From assembly GCF_054482595.1 (NCBI RefSeq), contig NZ_CM137008.1: a stretch of 64,000 nucleotides of DNA, one strand, 5' to 3'. Below, one piece after another: positions 44,711 to 60,949 of the stretch (its first letter is position 1; every line of letters starts with the position of its first letter). The notes under the pieces were generated by a model. That model saw only the letters and a list, made by a program, of their open reading frames with translations, ran no database searches and was not told the origin of the DNA. A program made the position numbers and the translations under genes.

Positions 44711-44929
44711 ATGTACTTGACACTTCAGGAGTGGAACGCACGCCAGCGACGCCCAAGAAGCCTTGAAACAGTTCGTCGATGGGTACGCGAGTGCAGGATA
44801 TTCCCTCCTCCGGTTAAGGATGGAAGAGAGTATCTGTTCCACGAATCAGCGGTAAAGGTTGACTTAAATCGACCAGTAACAGGTAGCCTTTTGAAGAGGA
44901 TCAGAAATGGGAAGAAGGCGAAGTCATGA
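44711..44929 (+). CDS. xis: Excisionase Xis
   Basis: 72-aa ORF MYLTLQEWNARQRRPRSLETVRRWVRECRIFPPPV matches lambda Xis; 23-nt overlap with int. Confidence 0.95.
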   Translation: MYLTLQEWNARQRRPRSLETVRRWVRECRIFPPPVKDGREYLFHESAVKVDLNRPVTGSLLKRIRNGKKAKS

Positions 44930-45980
44930 GCGCCGGGATTTACCCCCTAACCTTTATATAAGAAACAATGGATATTACTGCTACAGGGACCCAAGGACGG
45001 GTAAAGAGTTTGGATTAGGCCGAGACAGGAGGATAGCAATCACTGAAGCAATACAGGCCAATATTGAGTTACTCTCAGACAGCGGACGCAAATCACTGAT
45101 AGACAGAATTAAAGGCGGTGACGCAATCACTCTTCATGTGTGGCTTGACCGATATGAAACAATCCTCACCGAAAGGGGGATCAGGCCGAAAACTCTACTC
45201 GACTACGCCAGCAAAATCAGGGCAATCCGAAGAAAATTGCCGGACAAACCGCTCACTGACATATCAACGAAAGAAGTGGCAGCAATGCTAAACACCTACG
45301 TAGCAGAAGGTAAAGCAGCTTCCGCAAAATTAATCAGGTCAACCCTTGTTGACGTTTTTCGTGAAGCAATAGCCGAGGGGCATGTGGCAACGAATCCGGT
45401 AACAGCAACCCGTACAGCAAAGTCAGAAGTAAGGCGCTCAAGGCTGACAGCTAATGAGTATGTCGAGATTTACCATGCAGCCGAACCTCTCCCTATCTGG
45501 CTAAGGCTGGCGATGGATTTGGCCGTCGTTACAGGGCAGAGAGTCGGCGATTTGTGCAGAATGAAATGGTCAGACATAAACGACAACCATCTTCACATTA
45601 AACAGAGTAAAACAGGGGCTAAACTCGCCATTCCGCTAACGCTAACGATTGACGCGCTCAATATCTCATTGGCTGATACACTACAGAAATGCAGGGAGGC
45701 CAGCAGCAGTGAAACTATAATCGCATCAAAGCATCACGATCCGCTTTCCCCGAAAACAGTATCAAAGTATTTTACAAAGGCGAGAAATGCATCTGGCCTC
45801 TCATTTGATGGAAACCCGCCAACATTCCATGAACTGCGTAGCCTGTCAGCGAGGCTATACCGGAACCAGATTGGCGATAAGTTTGCTCAACGTCTTCTCG
45901 GGCATAAATCAGATTCAATGGCGGCGCGGTATAGGGACAGCCGTGGACGGGAATGGGACAAAATTGAAATCGACAAATGA
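44907..45980 (+). CDS. int: Tyrosine integrase Int (lambda-type; N-terminal arm-binding domain lambda-identical, core-binding region divergent)
   Basis: 357-aa ORF; N-terminal ~55 aa identical to remembered lambda Int, divergence after residue ~56, conserved catalytic C-terminus (HELRSL ... LLGH ... Y). Confidence 0.95.
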   Translation: MGRRRSHERRDLPPNLYIRNNGYYCYRDPRTGKEFGLGRDRRIAITEAIQANIELLSDSGRKSLIDRIKGGDAITLHVWLDRYETILTERGIRPKTLLDYASKIRAIRRKLPDKPLTDISTKEVAAMLNTYVAEGKAASAKLIRSTLVDVFREAIAEGHVATNPVTATRTAKSEVRRSRLTANEYVEIYHAAEPLPIWLRLAMDLAVVTGQRVGDLCRMKWSDINDNHLHIKQSKTGAKLAIPLTLTIDALNISLADTLQKCREASSSETIIASKHHDPLSPKTVSKYFTKARNASGLSFDGNPPTFHELRSLSARLYRNQIGDKFAQRLLGHKSDSMAARYRDSRGREWDKIEIDK

Positions 45981-46074
45981 TTTTATTTTGACTAATAATG
46001 ACCTACTTACATTAATTTACTGATAATTAAAGAGATTTTAAATATACAACTTATTCACCTTAAGTGCACCGACC
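45981..46074. other. Int-proximal prophage/chromosome junction (attL-type site) and torS upstream region
   Basis: 94-bp AT-rich segment between int stop and torS start; core sequence cannot be defined without the other junction. Confidence 0.5.
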
Positions 46075-49964: not shown

Positions 49965-50013
49965 ATTAGCAACAAGCGGAACATCACCTCGCACGGGGTG
50001 ATGTTCACAAAAT

Positions 50014-50187
50014 CACATTATTTTGATTTTGACATCATAACTTTCAAGCCCGGTCATTTTTTCTCGCGCGGTGAAGCGAATTTCAGAGACTTCTTTCCCT
50101 GTATTCTTGTTCAGCTCGGCGATTTTTTGCGCGATAAAGTCGGCGATTTCCGTTTCGGCTTGTTTTTTTAACTCTTCAATATTCACT
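50014..50187 (-). CDS. gnsA: GnsA (57 aa; GTG start; ends approximate)
   Basis: Manual translation VNIEELKKQAETEIADFIAQKIAELNKNTGKEVSEIRFTAREKMTGLESYDVKIKIM. Confidence 0.75.
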
Positions 50188-50406
50188 GTTAACCTCTTCT
50201 GGTCTTAAAAGACAGCAACACGCCAGTAAGGTGTTGGTTCCCGGTACCCTGGTCAGGTAAGAAATGTTATAAGCCATCTCCCCGAAAGATTCAATAATCA
50301 ACAGGTTATCGCTTACTATACATACAGCGTTGAAGAAAAATAAGGCAGATATAAAAAAGGCTCCACGAGGGAGCCTGATATTATTTTGTGAAATCCAGCG
50401 GCGCAT
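50176..50406 (-). CDS. ymcE: YmcE (76 aa small membrane protein)
   Basis: [28 protein letters not shown] within an 87-aa track ORF; K-12 order between gnsA and cspG. Confidence 0.7.
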   Translation of the reverse strand: MRRWISQNNIRLPRGAFFISALFFFNAVCIVSDNLLIIESFGEMAYNISYLTRVPGTNTLLACCCLLRPEEVNSEY

Positions 50407-50641
50407 GGTCAGTGCGTATTTGCAGCGCGACGTTATCAAAGGTGATCATCGTCGATTTACAAAAAATACACTTAGCGCCCAAAGGGTTTCGCTCCGTCAC
50501 ATCGAATGCCGATGTGCGGTACTGTGAACCATGACAACATGGACAGCGGAAATGGAGATGTTGAGTAATAACGGCAACCTTAGAGCGTAACAACGTTCGC
50601 TGCCGCGGGGCCACGTTGCCCCTGCTCAATAGAAAATTCAA
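50381..50641 (-). CDS. Small Cys-rich ORF overlapping cspG 3' end (possibly ymcF-like; may be spurious)
   Basis: 86-aa ORF with CPCCH ... CIFC; overlaps cspG by about 60 nt in another frame. Confidence 0.25.
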
Positions 50642-50792
50642 CTTTCTGATTTTCGTTCAGCGTGCGGAATTCATTGCTCTGGATGGCGGTGAAATGGACG
50701 AAAACGTCTTTGCTGCCATCATCAGGAGTGATAAAGCCAAAACCTTTATCTGCGTTAAACCATTTTACTAAACCAGTCATTTTATTAGACAT
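50580..50792 (-). CDS. cspG: Cold shock protein CspG
   Basis: 70-aa [26 protein letters not shown]; S1-like cold shock domain. Confidence 0.95.
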
Positions 50793-51077
50793 ATTTTACT
50801 TCCTTCATTTTGGGCCTTTCGGCAAACAGGGCTTTAATACAGAAACTACTTAGTGTTCAGGAGAGAGACTCAAAAGAAGGGGATAATGCCTGATAATGAG
50901 AACTGCTTTAGTAAACTACTTTGTATGCTGTCTGTCTTTCCAACCGACGCAGCTATTAACGCATGATAATTGAGATTAAGCAAATTTTATTTTAGCCGTC
51001 CGGCGGTCTTAAATATCGCTGGCTTTATTTTATTAACCCCGTATAGTGCAGCGCAGTATTTTCAGTAAGGAATTTGT

Positions 51078-51290
51078 TTGTCCCGTAAAATGACAGGAAT
51101 TGTCAAAACCTTTGATCGCAAAAGCGGCAAAGGATTCATTATCCCCTCCGACGGTCGTAAAGAAGTTCAGGTCCATATTTCCGCATTCACTCCCCGCGAC
51201 GCAGAAGTGCTTATACCAGGATTACGCGTGGAATTTTGCCGCGTAAATGGCCTGCGAGGACCAACAGCGGCAAATGTTTATCTCTCTTAA
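51078..51290 (+). CDS. cspH: Cold shock-like protein CspH
   Basis: 70-aa [26 protein letters not shown]. Confidence 0.9.
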
Positions 51291-51731
51291 TATGACGCTG
51301 CTTGTTTAAAGCTGACTGGTTTTATTGGCATAGTTCAATAGTCAACACCATGTATTATAACACAAGTTACTTTTTCACCGGAAAACTAATCCATTTGACC
51401 GAATATCTCTACAACTAATAGTTATAAATGCCACTTAACAGCGAGTTATAGTACCACTTGAAACTATATTGCCAACAATAGTTAATAGCTTTCTTAACAA
51501 TTTTCTTATCTTTAATTTGTATTTTGCTAAGATTTATCTTATGCTCACAAGTCGTATTTCCAGAGGGGAATAGTTAACAATCTTATATTTCCCTCTGCGC
51601 GCCTTTCTCACCCGCTGTATATAGTGCAAGTGGTATGAGGAAAGGGAGATTTCACAAGGATGTTATACTCAAAGTAGACAATCCTGATCTCAAGCGTACG
51701 TATTGTCCATGCGATGAATAAAGGAAAAGTT

Positions 51732-52037
51732 ATGAAACACAAGCTTTCTGCAATCCTTATGGCCTTCATGTTGACGACGCCAGCTGCGTTTGCTGCCCCT
51801 GAAGCAGCAAACGGGACCGAGGCAACGACGGGTACTACTGGCACCACAACGACCACTACCGGTGCAACCACGACGGCTGCTACCACTGGTGGCGTGGCTG
51901 CTGGCGCTGTCGGCACGGCGACAGTTGTCGGTGTGGCAACGGCTGTTGGTGTGGCGACGTTGGCAGTAGTTGCAGCAAATGACAGTGGCGATGGCGGTTC
52001 TCATAACACCTCAACCACCACGTCCACTACGCGCTAA
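51732..52037 (+). CDS. gfcA: Thr-rich small membrane protein GfcA (YmcD)
   Basis: MKHKLSAILMAF signal/anchor then TTGTTGTTTTTTGATTTAATTGG threonine-rich tract. Confidence 0.85.
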   Translation: MKHKLSAILMAFMLTTPAAFAAPEAANGTEATTGTTGTTTTTTGATTTAATTGGVAAGAVGTATVVGVATAVGVATLAVVAANDSGDGGSHNTSTTTSTTR

Positions 52038-52143
52038 TTCTGCTTAAACGCGTCGAAATTAAAGTTAAATAATACCCGGTTGCGATATTCGTACCGGGCT
52101 TTAGAGATTTGCATTTTTTTAATTAACCTTTCAAGGATTAAAG

Positions 52144-52788
52144 GTGCGCCCTCTTATTTTATCGATTTTCGCACTATTTCTTGCGGGATGTACGCACAGC
52201 CAGCAAAGTATGGTCGATACATTTCGCGCCAGCCTTTTCGATAATCAGGATATCACCGTAGCGGATCAGCAGATCCAGGCGTTGCCTTATTCCACGATGT
52301 ATTTACGCCTTAATGAAGGGCAACGAATCTTTGTGGTACTGGGATATATAGAACAAGAACAAAGCAAATGGTTATCCCAGGATAACGCCATGCTGGTTAC
52401 CCACAATGGACGTCTTTTAAAGACCGTCAAACTTAATAATAATCTGCTGGAAGTGACAAATTCCGGGCAGGACCCTCTGCGTAACGCGCTGGCAATAAAA
52501 GACGGCAGCCGCTGGACGCGCGATATTCTCTGGAGTGAAGACAACCATTTTCGCTCTGCGACCCTGAGTTCCACTTTTTCCTTTGCTGGATTAGAGACGC
52601 TGCATATTGCGGGTCGCGATGTGCTGTGTAATGTCTGGCAGGAAGAGGTGACTTCCACGCTGCCAGAAAAACAGTGGCAAAACACATTCTGGGTCGATTC
52701 GGCTACTGGCCAGGTTCGTCAAAGTCGGCAAATGTTAGGCGCAGGGGTTATTCCCGTAGAAATGACGTTTCTTAAACCCGCACCATGA
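52144..52788 (+). CDS. gfcB: Lipoprotein GfcB (YmcC)
   Basis: 214-aa ORF with lipobox LAGC; K-12 order. Confidence 0.9.
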   Translation: MRPLILSIFALFLAGCTHSQQSMVDTFRASLFDNQDITVADQQIQALPYSTMYLRLNEGQRIFVVLGYIEQEQSKWLSQDNAMLVTHNGRLLKTVKLNNNLLEVTNSGQDPLRNALAIKDGSRWTRDILWSEDNHFRSATLSSTFSFAGLETLHIAGRDVLCNVWQEEVTSTLPEKQWQNTFWVDSATGQVRQSRQMLGAGVIPVEMTFLKPAP

Positions 52789-53531
52789 ATAAATTACAGT
52801 CGTATTTCATTGCCAGCGTACTTTACGTAATGACACCCCATGCCTTTGCGCAAGGAACGGTGACTATTTATCTGCCTGGCGAACAACAGACACTTTCCGT
52901 TGGCCCCGTGGAGAATGTTGCCCAGTTGGTGACACAACCGCAACTGCGCGATCGCCTCTGGTGGCCTGGTGCCCTGCTGACCGACTCCGCGGTGAAAGCT
53001 AAAGCGCTTAAAGACTACCAACATGTCATGGCACAGCTTGCTTCCTGGGAAGCAGAAGCTGACGACGATGTGGCGGCAACGATTAAATCCGTGCGCCAGC
53101 AGTTACTCAATCTCAATATTACTGGTCGCTTACCGGTCAAACTGGACCCTGATTTTGTACGAGTGGATGAGAACAGCAATCCCCCGCTGGTCGGGAACTA
53201 TACGCTCTATACCGTACAGCGCCCGGTGACTATTACTCTTCTGGGTGCGGTTTCTGGGGCTGGGCAATTGCCCTGGCAGGCAGGCCGTAGCGTTACCGAT
53301 TATCTGCAAGATCACCCCCGTCTTGCAGGCGCGGACAAGAATAACGTTATCGTGATTACGCCTGAGGGTGAGACTGTCGTCGCCCCTGTTGCCCTGTGGA
53401 ATAAAAGACATGTGGAACCACCGCCTGGCAGCCAGCTTTGGTTAGGCTTTTCTGCGCATGTACTGCCCGAAAAATATGCTGATTTAAATGACCAGATTGT
53501 GTCTGTTTTAACGCAACGTGTTCCTGACTGA
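52785..53531 (+). CDS. gfcC: GfcC (YmcB)
   Basis: 248-aa ORF with signal peptide; operon order. Confidence 0.9.
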
Positions 53532-55627
53532 TGAAGAAGAATTCTTATCTTTTAAGCTGCCTGGCCATTGCCGTCTCCAGTGCCTGTCATGCTGAAGTAT
53601 TAACCTACCCGGATCCGCTGGGTTCGTCGCAATCGGACTTTGGCGGCACAGGATTGTTGCAGATGCCAAATGCGCGCATCGCACCGGAAGGTGAATTCAG
53701 CGTCAACTACCGGGATAACGATCAATACCGTTTCTACTCCACCTCCGTGGCGCTGTTCCCATGGCTGGAAGGCACCATTCGTTATACGGATGTGCGCACA
53801 CGTAAATATAGCCAGTGGGAAGATTTCAGCGGCGATCAGTCATACAAAGACAAATCATTCGATTTTAAACTTCGCCTGTGGGAAGAAGGTTACTGGCTAC
53901 CGCAAGTGGCGTTTGGTAAACGTGATATTGCTGGTACGGGTCTGTTTGACGGTGAGTATCTGGTGGCCAGCAAGCAAGCGGGGCCATTTGATTTCACCCT
54001 CGGGATGGCATGGGGCTACGCCGGTAATGCAGGCAATATTACCAACCCGTTTTGCCGGGTGAGCGATAAATATTGTCATCGCGCAGAGTCTCACGATGCG
54101 GGCGATATCAGCTTTAGCGATATCTTTCGTGGCCCAGCCTCCATCTTTGGCGGCATTGAGTATCAAACGCCGTGGAATCCCCTGCGTCTGAAACTCGAAT
54201 ACGACGGCAACAATTACCAGAATGATTTCGCTGGCAAACTGCCTCAGGCAAGCCATTTCAACGTCGGTGCAGTTTATCGCGCTGCCAGCTGGGCAGACCT
54301 CAACCTGAGTTATGAACGCGGTAACACGTTGATGTTTGGTTTCACTTTACGGACCAATTTCAACGATCTGCGCCCTGCCCTGCGCGATACGCCAAAACCG
54401 GCATATCAACCTGCGCCTGAATCTGAAGGATTGCAGTACACCACGGTAGCAAACCAACTTACCGCCCTGAAGTATAACGCGGGCTTTGACGCGCCAGAAA
54501 TTCAGCTACGCGATAAGACGCTGTATATGTCTGGTCAGCAATACAAATACCGTGACTCTCGTGAAGCGGTCGATCGTGCCAACCGGATTCTGGTGAATAA
54601 CCTGCCGCAAGGCGTTGAGAAGATTAGCGTGACGCAAAAGCGCGAGCATATGGCGATGGTGACTACCGAAACCGACGTAGCCAGCCTGCGCAAACAGCTG
54701 GCAGGTACAGCGCCTGGTCAATCAGAGCCACTGCAACAACAACGTGTTGAAGCTGAAGATCTTTCTGCCTTTGGTCGGGGCTACCGTATTCGTGAAGATC
54801 GCTTTAGCTACTCTTTCAACCCAACACTTTCACAGTCGCTGGGCGGCCCGGAAGATTTCTATATGTTCCAGCTGGGGCTGATGTCCAGCGCCCGCTACTG
54901 GTTTACCGACCACCTGCTGCTTGATGGCGGTATTTTCACCAATATTTACAACAACTACGACAAGTTTAAGTCTTCACTGTTGCCCGCGGACTCTACCCTG
55001 CCCCGCGTGCGCACGCATATCCGTGATTACGTTCGCAATGACGTTTATCTCAACAACTTGCAGGCGAATTACTTTGCCGACTTAGGCAATGGTTTCTATG
55101 GCCAGGTGTATGGCGGTTATCTGGAAACGATGTACGCCGGTGTCGGTTCCGAGCTGCTTTATCGCCCGCTAGATGCCAGCTGGGCGCTGGGTGTGGACGT
55201 TAACTACGTGAAGCAGCGTGACTGGGACAACATGATGCGCTTCACCGATTATTCCACGCCAACTGGTTTCGTGACGGCTTACTGGAACCCGCCGACGCTC
55301 AATGGCGTACTGATGAAACTTAGCGTTGGGCAATATCTGGCAAAAGATAAAGGGGCAACGATCGACGTCGCCAAACGCTTTGACAGCGGCGTGGCGGTAG
55401 GGGTATGGGCGGCAATCAGTAACGTATCTAAAGATGACTACGGCGAAGGCGGCTTTAGTAAAGGTTTTTATATCTCGATTCCGTTCGACTTGATGACCAT
55501 TGGACCTAACCGCAACCGCGCGGTGGTTTCGTGGACACCATTGACGCGTGATGGTGGACAAATGCTGTCACGCAAATACCAGCTCTATCCAATGACGGCA
55601 GAGCGAGAAGTACCGGTTGGACAATAA
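53531..55627 (+). CDS. gfcD: Outer membrane lipoprotein GfcD (YmcA)
   Basis: 698-aa ORF; operon order. Confidence 0.9.
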
Positions 55628-55672
55628 CCTGACGTAATTCATAACATTACATTGACTGATAAATATAAACCA

Positions 55673-56812
55673 ATGAAAAAGAACATTTTTAAGTTTTCGG
55701 TACTGACATTGGCTGTTCTGTCTTTGACAGCATGTACCCTTGTTCCTGGTCAGAATTTATCGACCAGTAACAAGGATGTCATTGAACTACCTGACAATCA
55801 GTATGACCTGGACAAAATGGTCAATATCTATCCCGTCACGCCAGGATTGATTGATCAGTTGCGCGCCAAACCGATTATGTCGCAGGCTAACCCGGAGCTG
55901 GAGCAGCAAATCGCGAACTATGAATATCGTATCGGCATTGGTGATGTGTTGATGGTTACGGTCTGGGATCACCCGGAACTAACCACCCCCGCAGGGCAAT
56001 ACCGTAGCGCCAGTGATACCGGCAACTGGGTTAACGCCGATGGTGCGATTTTCTACCCCTATATTGGTCGCCTGAAAGTGGCCGGGAAAACACTTACCCA
56101 GGTACGCAACGAGATTACAGCGCGTCTGGATTCAGTCATTGAAAGCCCGCAGGTCGATGTCAGCGTCGCGGCGTTCCGATCGCAAAAAGCGTACGTCACC
56201 GGCGAAGTCAGCAAATCGGGTCAGCAGCCGATTACCAATATTCCTCTGACCATCATGGATGCGATTAACGCCGCAGGCGGTCTGACCGCAGATGCAGACT
56301 GGCGCAATGTGGTGCTCACCCAGAATGGCGTAAAGACCAAAGTGAACCTCTATGCGCTGATGCAGCGTGGCGACTTGCGCCAGAACAAACTGCTGCACCC
56401 GGGAGATATTTTATTTATTCCGCGCAACGATGATCTGAAAGTCTTCGTGATGGGTGAAGTGGGTAAACAGAGCACGCTGAAAATGGACCGCAGCGGTATG
56501 ACCCTGGCGGAAGCGCTGGGTAACGCTGAGGGTATGAATCAGGATGTCGCTGATGCGACGGGGATTTTTGTTATTCGTGCAACGCAAAACAAGCAGAATG
56601 GCAAAATCGCCAATATTTATCAGCTGAATGCGAAGGACGCATCGGCAATGATACTCGGAACGGAATTCCAGCTTGAACCTTACGACATTGTTTATGTCAC
56701 TACCGCGCCTCTGGCTCGTTGGAACCGTGTGATTTCTCTGCTGGTACCGACGATTTCCGGGGTGCATGACCTGACAGAGACTTCACGGTGGATTCAAACA
56801 TGGCCCAACTAA
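55673..56812 (+). CDS. gfcE: Polysaccharide export lipoprotein GfcE (Wza homologue)
   Basis: [21 protein letters not shown] lipobox; 379 aa. Confidence 0.9.
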
Positions 56813-57246
56813 AATTTAACTCAATCCTGGTGGTTTGTACCGGCAACATTTGCCGTTCGCCCATTGGCGAGCGCTTGCTGCGTAAACGTCTGCCGGGCGT
56901 AAAAGTCAAATCGGCAGGTGTTCATGGTCTGGTAAAACACCCTGCAGATGCGACAGCGGCAGATGTTGCCGCTAATCATGGCGTATCTCTTGAAGGACAT
57001 GCCGGACGTAAGCTCACTGCTGAGATGGCACGAAATTACGATCTGATTCTGGCAATGGAGTCGGAACATATTGCTCAGGTTACCGCAATCGCTCCCGAGG
57101 TCCGCGGGAAGACAATGCTGTTTGGGCAATGGCTGGAACAGAAAGAGATCCCGGATCCCTATCGTAAAAGTCAGGACGCATTTGAACATGTCTACGGTAT
57201 GTTGGAGCGCGCCAGTCAGGAATGGGCGAAGCGCCTCAGCCGGTAA
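56800..57246 (+). CDS. etp: Low-molecular-weight protein-tyrosine phosphatase Etp
   Basis: CTGNICRSP active-site P-loop motif. Confidence 0.9.
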
Positions 57247-57265
57247 TTTGAGTTTATAAAATACG

Positions 57266-59446
57266 ATGACAACTAAAAATATGAATACGCCACCAGGCAG
57301 CACTCAGGAAAATGAGATCGATCTGCTTCGTCTGGTCGGCGAGTTATGGGATCACCGTAAGTTTATTATCAGCGTGACCGCGTTATTCACGCTGATCGCT
57401 GTCGCTTACTCGCTGTTAAGCACACCAATTTATCAGGCAGATACTCTGGTCCAGGTTGAGCAAAAACAGGGCAACGCCATTCTCAGCGGCCTGAGTGATA
57501 TGATCCCTAACTCATCGCCCGAGTCTGCACCGGAGATCCAACTGCTGCAATCGCGCATGATTCTCGGTAAAACCATTGCTGAACTGAATCTGCGCGACAT
57601 GGTTGAGCAGAAGTATTTTCCGATTGTGGGTCGCGGCTGGGCGAGATTAACCAAAGAGAAACCAGGTGAGCTGGCGATCAGCTGGATGCATATTCCACAA
57701 CTGAATGGTCAGGATCAGCAACTGACACTCACGGTTGGGGAAAACGGCCACTATACGCTGGAAGGTGAAGAGTTCACCGTCAATGGTATGGTCGGCCAGC
57801 GTCTGGAAAAAGATGGCGTTGCGCTGACTATAGCGGATATTAAGGCCAAACCAGGAACACAGTTTGTCCTGAGCCAACGTACCGAACTGGAAGCGATTAA
57901 CGCGTTGCAGGAAACCTTTACCGTTAGCGAACGCAGTAAAGAAAGCGGGATGCTGGAACTTACCATGACCGGTGATGATCCCCAGTTGATTACCCGTATT
58001 CTGAACAGCATCGCTAACAACTATTTGCAACAGAATATCGCTCGCCAGGCGGCGCAGGATTCACAAAGCCTTGAATTCTTACAGCGCCAGTTGCCTGAAG
58101 TGCGCAGCGAGCTGGACCAGGCGGAAGAAAAACTCAACGTTTATCGCCAGCAGCGCGATTCGGTTGACCTTAACCTGGAAGCCAAAGCCGTTCTTGAGCA
58201 GATTGTGAACGTTGATAATCAACTCAATGAGCTGACCTTCCGCGAGGCAGAGATCTCCCAGCTGTATAAGAAAGATCACCCAACTTATCGTGCGCTGCTG
58301 GAAAAACGCCAGACGCTGGAGCAAGAACGCAAACGCCTGAATAAGCGGGTATCGGCTATGCCTTCCACCCAACAGGAAGTGTTGCGTTTAAGTCGTGACG
58401 TAGAAGCGGGCCGTGCGGTATATCTGCAATTACTTAACCGCCAGCAGGAGTTGAGTATTTCGAAATCCAGTGCCATTGGTAACGTGCGGATTATCGACCC
58501 GGCAGTCACTCAGCCGCAGCCAGTGAAACCGAAAAAAGCGTTGAACGTGGTGCTTGGTTTTATTCTTGGCCTGTTTATTTCGGTGGGTGCCGTGCTGGCG
58601 CGTGCGATGTTGCGTCGTGGTGTAGAAGCACCGGAACAACTGGAAGAGCACGGCATCAGCGTTTATGCCACTATCCCAATGTCCGAGTGGCTGGATAAAC
58701 GCACCCGTCTGCGTAAGAAAAATTTATTTTCTAATCAGCAGCGCCATCGTACTAAAAATATCCCCTTCCTGGCGGTGGATAACCCGGCGGATTCTGCTGT
58801 GGAAGCCGTACGTGCGCTACGAACCAGTCTGCATTTCGCTATGATGGAGACTGAGAATAACATTCTGATGATCACCGGTGCGACGCCAGACAGTGGTAAA
58901 ACATTTGTCAGTTCAACTCTGGCAGCGGTGATCGCCCAGTCCGATCAAAAAGTGTTATTTATTGATGCCGACTTACGCCGTGGTTATTCGCATAACCTGT
59001 TTACCGTGAGTAATGAACATGGCTTGTCGGAATATCTGGCAGGTAAAGATGAGCTCAACAAAGTGATCCAGCATTTTGGCAAAGGAGGCTTTGATGTGAT
59101 TACTCGCGGTCAGGTGCCACCTAACCCGTCTGAACTGCTGATGCGCGATCGGATGCGTCAATTACTGGAATGGGCGAACGACCATTACGATCTGGTGATT
59201 GTCGATACGCCGCCGATGCTGGCGGTGAGCGATGCTGCGGTCGTGGGGCGCTCTGTCGGCACCAGCCTGCTGGTTGCACGTTTTGGCCTGAACACCGCCA
59301 AAGAGGTGAGTTTGTCAATGCAGCGTCTGGAACAGGCAGGCGTCAATATTAAAGGCGCTATCCTCAATGGTGTGATTAAACGCGCCAGCACCGCTTACAG
59401 TTACGGCTATAACTATTACGGTTATAGTTACTCCGAGAAAGAGTAA
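57266..59446 (+). CDS. etk: Tyrosine-protein kinase Etk (Wzc family)
   Basis: 726-aa ORF; Walker A GATPDSGKT and C-terminal Tyr-rich tail YSYGYNYYGYSY. Confidence 0.95.
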   Translation: MTTKNMNTPPGSTQENEIDLLRLVGELWDHRKFIISVTALFTLIAVAYSLLSTPIYQADTLVQVEQKQGNAILSGLSDMIPNSSPESAPEIQLLQSRMILGKTIAELNLRDMVEQKYFPIVGRGWARLTKEKPGELAISWMHIPQLNGQDQQLTLTVGENGHYTLEGEEFTVNGMVGQRLEKDGVALTIADIKAKPGTQFVLSQRTELEAINALQETFTVSERSKESGMLELTMTGDDPQLITRILNSIANNYLQQNIARQAAQDSQSLEFLQRQLPEVRSELDQAEEKLNVYRQQRDSVDLNLEAKAVLEQIVNVDNQLNELTFREAEISQLYKKDHPTYRALLEKRQTLEQERKRLNKRVSAMPSTQQEVLRLSRDVEAGRAVYLQLLNRQQELSISKSSAIGNVRIIDPAVTQPQPVKPKKALNVVLGFILGLFISVGAVLARAMLRRGVEAPEQLEEHGISVYATIPMSEWLDKRTRLRKKNLFSNQQRHRTKNIPFLAVDNPADSAVEAVRALRTSLHFAMMETENNILMITGATPDSGKTFVSSTLAAVIAQSDQKVLFIDADLRRGYSHNLFTVSNEHGLSEYLAGKDELNKVIQHFGKGGFDVITRGQVPPNPSELLMRDRMRQLLEWANDHYDLVIVDTPPMLAVSDAAVVGRSVGTSLLVARFGLNTAKEVSLSMQRLEQAGVNIKGAILNGVIKRASTAYSYGYNYYGYSYSEKE

Positions 59447-59458
59447 AACTGAAGGTAA

Positions 59459-59497
59459 AGTGACCGGATGCGGCGTGAACGCCTTTTCCGGTCTACG
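59459..59497. repeat. REP (repetitive extragenic palindromic) element
   Basis: gtgaccggatgcggcgtgaacgccttttccggtctacgc matches REP consensus pattern. Confidence 0.75.
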
Positions 59498-59529
59498 CAT
59501 TAGACAGTTCTTCGTTTGTCATCAGCCTC

Positions 59530-59561
59530 AGAGCATTCAGGTAGCTGAATGCTCTTTTTTA
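59530..59561 (+). terminator. Rho-independent terminator downstream of etk
   Basis: agagcattcag gtag ctgaatgctct followed by tttttt. Confidence 0.8.
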
Positions 59562-59565
59562 TACA

Positions 59566-60867
59566 TTACAAACTGCACGCCGGTATGCGTGCTTCATTCA
59601 CGATTTGCGTAAAACCGGCCAACGAACACATGCCCTGCGCATTTCGCTCTTCACATCCTGCCAGGGTCAGTTTCACCTCTCCGGGCGGCGTATTTAATGA
59701 CAGCGGCGTTTTATCACGCATCTGCTGTAAAGTCTGGAAGACCAGCGAAACCTGAATCCACTGGCTGTTATCGCTTAGCCGACGCCAGCGTTCAAACACC
59801 AGTTCACCACCTGGCGGCGTGTTATCCGGCTGACCTGGAAGCGTCCAATTGAGCTCCAGTGCGCCGCCGAGATTTGCCAGATTAGTATCGTGTCCGGCGA
59901 TAAACAGCACTGAAGTGGGTAATGTCACACTATACGCCTGTTTTTGCGGTGGATGGGGCGTCAACGCTGTCATGATCAATTCCAACAACGGGGTGGCGCG
60001 GCTGCGGGCAACCTCTGGCGTGCGTTGTAGTAAATAAAATTGCGCGTTATGCAAACTTAGCAACGTGTTCCACTGGTGTGAATCAGTGATCCTTCCCCAC
60101 CCCGGCTCCGGCATTCCCTGTGCCTGTTGCAGGAGAAATATCTCCGTCAGCATTGATGCGAGGCTTACCGCACCGGTTAATGAGACATTGTCGGCGCTCA
60201 CCTTGAGTTCCGATGGTAATGCCTGCATTAATGAACAGCTTTCGTCCTGTTTCTCACGGTTAAGGCACAAGTTTGATTGCGGAAAATTAAGCACCCGTTC
60301 CAGTTCGCGAAACGCCGTTTGCCGATGCCCGGTAAAGTCAGCAATTGACCCTCCTGCCCTGCTGAGGATCGCGTCAGTCACGTTCGCGTTATCCAGTTGG
60401 CAAACGCCAGTTTTTAGAGGATTAAATAACGGATCGGGACTGGACGTATCTGCCTGGGTATGTACGGTTATTGCACAGTCAGGTGCCAGCCCGGCGGCGA
60501 AGGCTTCGCCTGTTTTACGGGTACGCTCGTCGACATCAGCAATAATCGCGACCTGACCAGGCTGCGGGCAGCCCTTTTTCGCCAGCAATCCGTCGGCTAC
60601 CAGACGCTGGCGTTGGTAATGTCCGAGATAGGCGATTAGCTCACCACCGCGCGGTGTCAGCCAACCTAGTTTTACCGGCCAGGTTGGCCATGCGTCTGGG
60701 GTGACATCCTGCATCAGTTGCGTGGCCTTGGTTGGGGCACGCACACCATGACGACTGACAATCACCACACTTTCCAGCTTCAGCTCCGGCTCCGGCTCAC
60801 TCTGAGCGAATGCAGATTGCGGGGTTAACGGAATCAGAAGAGATAAAAATGGGATCAAGATCGCTTT
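59566..60867 (-). CDS. appA: Periplasmic acid phosphatase/phytase AppA
   Basis: MKAILIPFLSLLIPLTPQSAFA signal peptide; RHGVRAP histidine acid phosphatase motif. Confidence 0.95.
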   Translation of the reverse strand, partial: KAILIPFLSLLIPLTPQSAFAQSEPEPELKLESVVIVSRHGVRAPTKATQLMQDVTPDAWPTWPVKLGWLTPRGGELIAYLGHYQRQRLVADGLLAKKGCPQPGQVAIIADVDERTRKTGEAFAAGLAPDCAITVHTQADTSSPDPLFNPLKTGVCQLDNANVTDAILSRAGGSIADFTGHRQTAFRELERVLNFPQSNLCLNREKQDESCSLMQALPSELKVSADNVSLTGAVSLASMLTEIFLLQQAQGMPEPGWGRITDSHQWNTLLSLHNAQFYLLQRTPEVARSRATPLLELIMTALTPHPPQKQAYSVTLPTSVLFIAGHDTNLANLGGALELNWTLPGQPDNTPPGGELVFERWRRLSDNSQWIQVSLVFQTLQQMRDKTPLSLNTPPGEVKLTLAGCEERNAQGMCSLAGFTQIVNEARIPACSL

Positions 60868-60949
60868 CATCGATATGTTTCCGCTTTTCATATCCGACAT
60901 TATTGATTGCCTGATACGACGCTAATGCGCCGCATCAGACTTACGTTCG

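Follow-up and report, generated by a model that had tools for sequence, protein, structure and literature searches.

The stretch of DNA analysed here (64,000 nucleotides of contig NZ_CM137008.1, NCBI RefSeq assembly GCF_054482595.1; hereafter the window) carries at positions 51291-59446 a group 4 capsule locus that reads, with a probability of roughly 0.93, as the native, uninterrupted chromosomal gfcABCDE-etp-etk operon of a non-K-12 Escherichia coli, closest to strain XH990 and the O157:H7 lineage. The operon was formerly named ymcDCBA-yccZ-etp-etk. The seven genes are co-oriented (+ strand), lie in the order gfcA-B-C-D-E-etp-etk between cspH and appA, and agree in layout with the RefSeq annotation of O157:H7, K-12, XH990, 4FM and E2348/69. 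All the elements expected of a group 4 capsule operon are present: the gene order, full-length products, a motif-bearing Wza-like lipoprotein, low-molecular-weight phosphotyrosine phosphatase and bacterial tyrosine (BY) kinase, the accessory genes and an uninterrupted upstream region. The disrupted state of K-12, where the insertion sequence (IS) IS1 lies upstream of gfcA, is not found, as the IS1 target CGTATTGTC occurs once and IS1 is absent. The locus is a textbook operon in its usual state, already annotated and described.

Organization of the operon

In group 4 capsule synthesis, Wzx/Wzy O-antigen units are polymerised in the periplasm and exported as a high-molecular-weight O-antigen capsule, instead of, or besides, being ligated to the lipid A-core. 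The outer-membrane channel is GfcE, which resembles Wza; Etk, the Wzc-like protein, serves in the inner membrane as co-polymerase and tyrosine autokinase, and its phosphorylation state is cycled by the Wzb-like phosphatase Etp. GfcA-D are envelope accessories specific to group 4: the Thr-rich GfcA, the lipoprotein GfcB, the periplasmic GfcC and the outer-membrane barrel GfcD. The coordinates below derive from a list of open reading frames (ORFs) and from translations compared with three annotated references: O157:H7 Vac_07.1, K-12 TG1 and the enteropathogenic E. coli (EPEC) strain E2348/69.

51732-52037, + strand: gfcA, 101 aa, small Thr-rich protein (28% Thr) with a signal-like N-terminus
52144-52788, + strand: gfcB, 214 aa, GTG start, YjbF-family lipoprotein with lipobox LAGC at residues 13-16
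52785-53531, + strand: gfcC, 248 aa, periplasmic protein, its start overlapping the gfcB stop by 4 nt
53531-55627, + strand: gfcD, 698 aa, YjbH-family outer-membrane protein
55673-56812, + strand: gfcE, 379 aa, Wza-type outer-membrane polysaccharide export lipoprotein with lipobox LTAC
56800-57246, + strand: etp, 148 aa, low-molecular-weight phosphotyrosine phosphatase
57266-59446, + strand: etk, 726 aa, Wzc-type tyrosine autokinase and co-polymerase

The initial annotation, made from the sequence without database searches, had called all seven genes full length, and this holds: none contains an internal stop, and each has its RefSeq length in all three references. For gfcE, the mechanical ORF list places the start at a TTG at 55652 instead of at 55673. 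From gfcA to etk, neighbouring genes are spaced (+) or overlap (-) by +106, -4, -1, +45, -13 and +19 nt; the operon has a G+C content of 0.511.

Family assignments are available for six of the seven products. GfcB matches Pfam PF11102 (E = 7e-69) and the YmcC structure 2IN5 (E = 1e-129), while GfcC contains the N- and C-terminal GfcC domains (PF20616, PF06251) and matches 3P42 (E = 2.5e-147). GfcD scores 899 bits against PF06082, covering model positions 1-657 of 658. GfcE scores 703 bits against NCBIfam PRK15078 and contains the Poly_export, SLBB and Wza_C domains of Pfam. Etp exceeds the cutoff of its NCBIfam equivalog (333.7 bits, cutoff 247) and has the motifs C13-X5-R-S (CTGNICRS) and D119-P. 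Etk matches the PRK09841 equivalog over 1-726 of 726 (1596 bits, cutoff 1248) and the Etk kinase-domain structure 3CIO (E = 2e-180); it contains Walker A (GATPDSGKT), Walker A' (VLFIDAD) and Walker B (LVIVDTPP) motifs, Tyr574, and seven Tyr among its last 20 residues. GfcA matched no model in Pfam or NCBIfam and is identical to O157:H7 WP_001299283.1.

The cspH-gfcA spacer and the K-12 IS1 site

According to the initial annotation, the region between cspH and gfcA was a 440-bp, AT-rich sequence without an IS-like ORF, opposed to the IS1 insertion that it gave for K-12. The base composition is confirmed (G+C 0.351), the length corrected to 441 bp, and a blastn search of the whole window with the K-12 IS1D returned chance matches of 12-18 nt only and no IS1.

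51291-51731, + strand: cspH-gfcA spacer, 441 bp, the uninterrupted gfc regulatory region
51291-51480, + strand: fast-evolving 5' part of the spacer, holding the majority of single-nucleotide polymorphisms (SNPs) within E. coli, 50-60% identical to E. albertii
51485-51602, + strand: conserved AT-rich block, ~90% identical to E. albertii and 94-96% to Escherichia sp. MOD1-EC7003, with flanks at 50-80%
51699-51707, no strand assigned: empty K-12 IS1 target CGTATTGTC, single copy, 24 nt before the gfcA ATG

The K-12 insertion is real. In K-12 TG1, a 768-bp IS1D lies between 9-bp duplications of CGTATTGTC, and since the element ends 33 nt upstream of the gfcA ATG, the whole spacer is cut off from the ribosome-binding site. 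An IS1 in the K-12 ymc promoter, missing from pathogenic strains, has been reported, and Etk is nevertheless still active in K-12 under some conditions (PMC2516531). A genomic SELEX study in K-12 listed a 'constitutive promoter' of RNA polymerase for gfcA, TGGAGA-18-TACACT (PMC3946193); it is located inside the IS1D end of TG1 (L002 10520-10576) and points outward to gfcA. Such an IS1-borne promoter could account for the residual expression of etk/gfc that has been reported for K-12, an explanation inapplicable to the window, which has no IS1.

The spacer aligns without gaps to that of O157:H7 (2 SNPs), EPEC (26 SNPs) and K-12 (28 SNPs), the last compared after subtraction of IS1 and one copy of the target duplication, which restores 441 bp. 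These alignments, the check suggested with the initial annotation, contain no indel and thereby rule out an IS remnant or a promoter deletion. The length of 441 bp is shared by eight of the nine E. coli strains compared (K-12 counted minus IS1), and ET729 has a 10-bp insertion. The two SNPs relative to O157:H7 lie at 51397 and 51550. At 51550, where O157 has G, the window has the base of every other strain compared; at 51397 it has G, as do XH990 and EPEC, where O157:H7, K-12 and five further strains have A. The G at 51397 completes the -35-like TTGACC of TTGACC-16-AATAGT (51395-51422), the sole promoter-like match on the + strand of the spacer. The match is no better than chance in a shuffle control, and the area is poorly conserved in E. 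albertii.

Relatives beyond E. coli were sought with a 20-nt exact pattern against the GTDB species representatives. Only those in E. albertii and Escherichia sp. MOD1-EC7003, two of 14 matches, proved genuine, a number too small for covariation statistics. Identity rises along the spacer: positions 51291-51450, distal to gfcA, are 50-60% identical to E. albertii and ~80% to cryptic-clade Escherichia, and the final 85 bp are 92-100% identical to both. From this pattern, the 51485-51602 block would be the likeliest site of the core promoter and operators. Hexamer candidates picked manually in the block were weak, with only 7-8 of 12 matches, and were dropped. An Rfam scan of 50000-60000 on both strands (E up to 1) found no family in the spacer; its sole matches were a thermoregulator in the cspG 5' untranslated region (UTR) and two sub-threshold ones elsewhere.

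Comparison with known systems

The experimentally defined reference is EPEC O127:H6 E2348/69, which has the same seven genes in the same order at the same cspH-appA site, with the same protein lengths and a 441-bp spacer. From gfcA to etk, its proteins differ from those of the window by 2, 1, 6, 4, 0, 0 and 3 residues (16 in total), so that five are 1-6 residues apart and GfcE and Etp are the same; the 26 spacer SNPs lie mostly in the 5' 190 bp. Strong gfcA expression in N-minimal medium has been reported for EPEC (PMC3853201).

Enterohaemorrhagic E. coli (EHEC) O157:H7 is closer, with 99.5-99.6% DNA identity over the 8,156-bp operon and 0-1 differences per protein, the only one being GfcD residue 369; at 51397, however, it has A where the G of the window gives TTGACC. 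In K-12 the genes are the same and also full length, with 98.6% identity and 11 amino-acid differences, but the spacer contains the 768-bp IS1D and its 9-bp target duplication where the window has an empty site. GfcD is one residue apart from K-12, as it is from O157; GfcE is the same in O157, K-12 and EPEC, and Etp is identical in every reference. Over the seven genes, pN/pS is 0.046 against K-12, 0.044 against EPEC and 0.034 against a divergent strain, values which indicate that the genes are under strong purifying selection.

Two related systems share components with the locus. The Wza-Wzb-Wzc proteins of group 1 capsules and colanic acid are paralogues of GfcE, Etp and Etk and share their domains: Etk matches the Wzc structures 7NHR and 9R62 with E-values as low as 1e-290, and Etp scores 198 bits against Wzb. 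However, the window proteins Etk and Etp score above the cutoffs of their own equivalogs and below those of the Wzc and Wzb models, and the locus differs from group 1 in having gfcABCD upstream and no linked glycosyltransferase, wzx or wzy genes. In the yjbEFGH exopolysaccharide operon, YjbF, YjbG and YjbH share Pfam families with GfcB, GfcC and GfcD, but this is a separate four-gene locus elsewhere on the chromosome, absent from the window and without genes for an outer-membrane polysaccharide export (OPX) protein, phosphatase or kinase.

Distribution among E. coli genomes

The state of the locus was surveyed in 5,426 complete E. coli genomes in RefSeq. The operon was matched in 3,746 of them (3,696 over at least 80% of its length), which leaves ~1,700 genomes (~31%) lacking it. 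About 3,600 genomes hold the K-12 IS1 site, and in 3,180 (~59% of all) a 200-nt probe with this site at its centre is uninterrupted. The K-12-type left junction occurs in at most 405 (~7%), many of which are laboratory K-12 derivatives; this number is an upper bound, as the match in at least one genome, RM14721, joins two pieces and stems from a different IS1 insertion, 49 bp away.

Other lineages have lost the locus in their own ways. Nissle 1917, which is among the genomes without the operon, has a deletion that starts at the cspH stop codon and reaches into the appA 3' end, so that the two coding sequences overlap by 13 nt. Independent IS hits include IS1A 49 bp beyond the K-12 site (RM14721), IS1A in the gfcA-gfcB spacer (B18271), IS1B inside gfcB (NRZ99027-2) and IS3 inside gfcA (Tig228). 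Altogether IS1 is found at four different positions, in addition to IS3, all at the 5' end of the locus (corresponding to 51700-52800 of the window). Given K-12-type IS1 in ~7% of the genomes, absence of the operon in ~31% and independent IS hits elsewhere, loss of the locus is recurrent and takes several forms, the K-12 state being one of them, and the uninterrupted state is common and presumably ancestral. Because it is the majority state, it says little about a strain beyond 'not K-12 or another IS-hit lineage'.

The finding has little weight as a discovery. The K-12 IS1 and its absence in pathogenic E. coli have been cited since the operon was described (PMC2516531), and all seven genes are already RefSeq-annotated in thousands of genomes. 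Its value is one of annotation, as it marks the source as a non-K-12, XH990/O157-like sequence type that has kept the O-antigen capsule export machinery. The O-antigen capsule has been associated with resistance to defensins, with shielding of the type III secretion system (T3SS) and with colonisation of the gut (PMC3853201; PMC8592465).

Function and alternative explanations

The pathway is used by EPEC, EHEC and Shigella sonnei to make O-antigen capsules; the seven genes are on one mRNA, and in O157:H7 the capsule is regulated inversely to the T3SS (PMC8592465). Both EPEC and EHEC have an active group 4 capsule export operon (PMC3853201), and the spacer in the window is colinear with those of these capsule-proficient strains. 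The suggestion in the initial annotation that the locus is potentially functional thus appears reasonable, given full-length proteins each 0-6 residues from those of EPEC, intact motifs and a pN/pS of ~0.04. In the corresponding scheme, which is established for the family and predicted for the copy in the window, Wzx/Wzy-made O-antigen polymer would be exported via GfcE under the control of the Etk/Etp phosphorylation cycle. Transcription would start from a promoter in the 51485-51602 block and proceed through a leader of ~130-230 nt. Expression would probably occur only under particular conditions, and a capsule would be made if the strain has a suitable O-antigen cluster.

Several points weigh against this interpretation. 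The O-antigen cluster, waaL and the regulators lie outside the 64-kb window, and 16 single-residue differences separate the operon proteins from the studied EPEC proteins. A scan of the spacer with the sigma-70 consensus gave three sites against 2.6 expected by chance, so no promoter could be assigned. In N-minimal medium, gfcA mRNA of EHEC O157:H7 was ~30-fold lower than that of EPEC and no capsule stain was seen (PMC3853201). As the spacer in the window is of the EHEC type bar two SNPs, its uninterrupted state should not be read as expression.

It is possible, although rather doubtful, that the operon is intact but effectively cryptic, silenced for example by nucleoid proteins acting on the AT-rich spacer, and that no capsule is ordinarily made. 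The low gfcA mRNA and missing capsule stain of O157:H7, whose spacer differs at 2 of 441 positions, would fit such silencing, as would a G+C content of 35%, which is typical of silenced promoters, and the many lineages that have lost the locus by IS insertion or deletion suggest that it is frequently dispensable. However, a pN/pS of ~0.04 across lineages argues for continued use, and in O157:H7 the capsule has been reported under other conditions and gfcB was a hit in a cattle colonisation screen (PMC8592465). A main role in signalling rather than capsule export, with Etk and Etp acting on other targets such as Ugd in polymyxin resistance or the heat-shock response, seems unlikely. Etk does phosphorylate Ugd, and Etk is needed for polymyxin resistance, even in IS1-bearing K-12 (PMC2516531), and the two enzymes are the best conserved, Etp being identical in all strains compared and Etk differing by 0-3 residues. 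Yet purifying selection also acts on GfcB, GfcC, GfcD and GfcE, for which no role other than polysaccharide export is known, and the two roles are not mutually exclusive.

There is only a very slight chance that the intact-looking locus is non-functional because of a hidden defect, for instance a SNP in the regulatory region or a harmful missense mutation. The candidates would be the two spacer SNPs relative to O157:H7 and the amino-acid differences from EPEC, but the base at 51550 is common to all other strains compared, the G at 51397 is shared with XH990 and EPEC, GfcD residue 369 is that of K-12 and EPEC, and all tested motifs are intact. A native, uninterrupted operon encoding capsule export remains the preferred reading.

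A possible structured leader

Identity to E. albertii is 50-60% in the distal part of the spacer but 90-100% in the promoter-proximal 250 bp, which fold into several predicted structures:

51561-51597, + strand: conserved hairpin with a stem of 11-12 bp, CAGAGGGGAAUA / UAUUUCCCUCUG, no U-tract after it, predicted by single-strand folding and RNAalifold
51602-51645, + strand: predicted stem-loop of the putative leader
51646-51691, + strand: predicted stem-loop of the putative leader

The fold of 51540-51735 is more stable than that of shuffled sequences (z = -2.9). In the 51561-51597 hairpin, two variable stem pairs are G-U in some sequences and A-U in others, as would fit an RNA from the + strand, and the closing pair is broken in one of eight sequences. 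With eight sequences, E. albertii and cryptic-clade Escherichia among them, the covariation term of RNAalifold was 0; one pair was compensatory and several were broken. The idea that these 250 bp form a structured 5' leader controlling group 4 capsule expression after transcription initiation is therefore a long shot. Control could be by temperature- or factor-dependent occlusion, or by antitermination, with the 51561-51597 hairpin and the stem-loops to 51691 as candidates. In the searchable literature, including that on YjjQ and H-NS, no regulator or leader element of the gfc operon was found.

A further hairpin, CCCGGT...ACCGGG (52075-52098, + strand), was read from the sequence of the 106-bp gfcA-gfcB spacer. 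With the T-rich stretch after it, it may act as a partial attenuator; a terminator scan made no call there and found a strong terminator only after etk.

Host and flanking regions

Over the 8,156 bp of the operon, the window is 100% identical to XH990, a urinary isolate with a 4.88-Mb genome. The host is clearly not K-12, as the initial annotation had proposed: identity to K-12 is 98.6%, the K-12 IS1 is absent, and a lambda-like prophage next to torS has no counterpart in K-12. The host is not an O157:H7 genome either, and it matches no single examined genome throughout. Reading upstream, the match to XH990, O157 and K-12 is lost beyond 46047, a position 29 nt before torS, and the prophage begins.

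The prophage occupies window positions 1-46046 at the torT-torS intergenic site; the window starts inside it, the integrase gene lies at ~44907-45980 and the junction at 46046/46047. It contains tail, head, lysis, Q, nin, O/P, cI/cII, N, red/gam, xis and int genes. Both the prophage and its junction recur at 99.9% identity in 4FM (from mink) and EC5502 (from a human). In EPEC E2348/69 the site holds a different prophage whose integrase protein is identical (WP_000533666.1), and the site is empty in XH990, O157:H7 Vac_07.1 and K-12. Between the prophage and the operon, gnsA (50013-50186, - strand) is an intact ORF of 57 aa, a state shared with XH990, 4FM and K-12, while it is annotated as frameshifted in O157:H7 Vac_07.1, a further sign that the host is not a typical O157:H7.

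51078-51290, + strand: cspH, 70 aa, TTG start, 5' neighbour of the operon, matching the NCBIfam CspH equivalog at 176 bits (cutoff 141)
59460-59561, + strand: operon end between the convergent etk and appA, with a REP-like element (59460-59495) followed by an 11-bp stem-loop with a T-run (59530-59561)

The CspH protein is the same in O157, K-12 and EPEC. Divergent from cspH lies cspG (50580-50792, - strand), whose 5' UTR and start are covered by a full-length match to the cspA thermoregulator RF01766 (50526-50948, - strand; 153 bits against a gathering score of 78). At the other end of the operon, transcription most likely ends at the 59530-59561 stem-loop, which, having T-runs on both sides, is probably a bidirectional terminator. 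A sub-threshold Rfam match to the REP-derived naRNA4 (33 bits) spans 59420-59493. Beyond it, appA (59566-60900, - strand) is listed as an ORF of 444 aa from the first in-frame start; in RefSeq its product has 434 aa in the most similar strains and 432 aa in K-12, and it has 436 aa in Nissle 1917, whose appA 3' end is altered by the gfc deletion.

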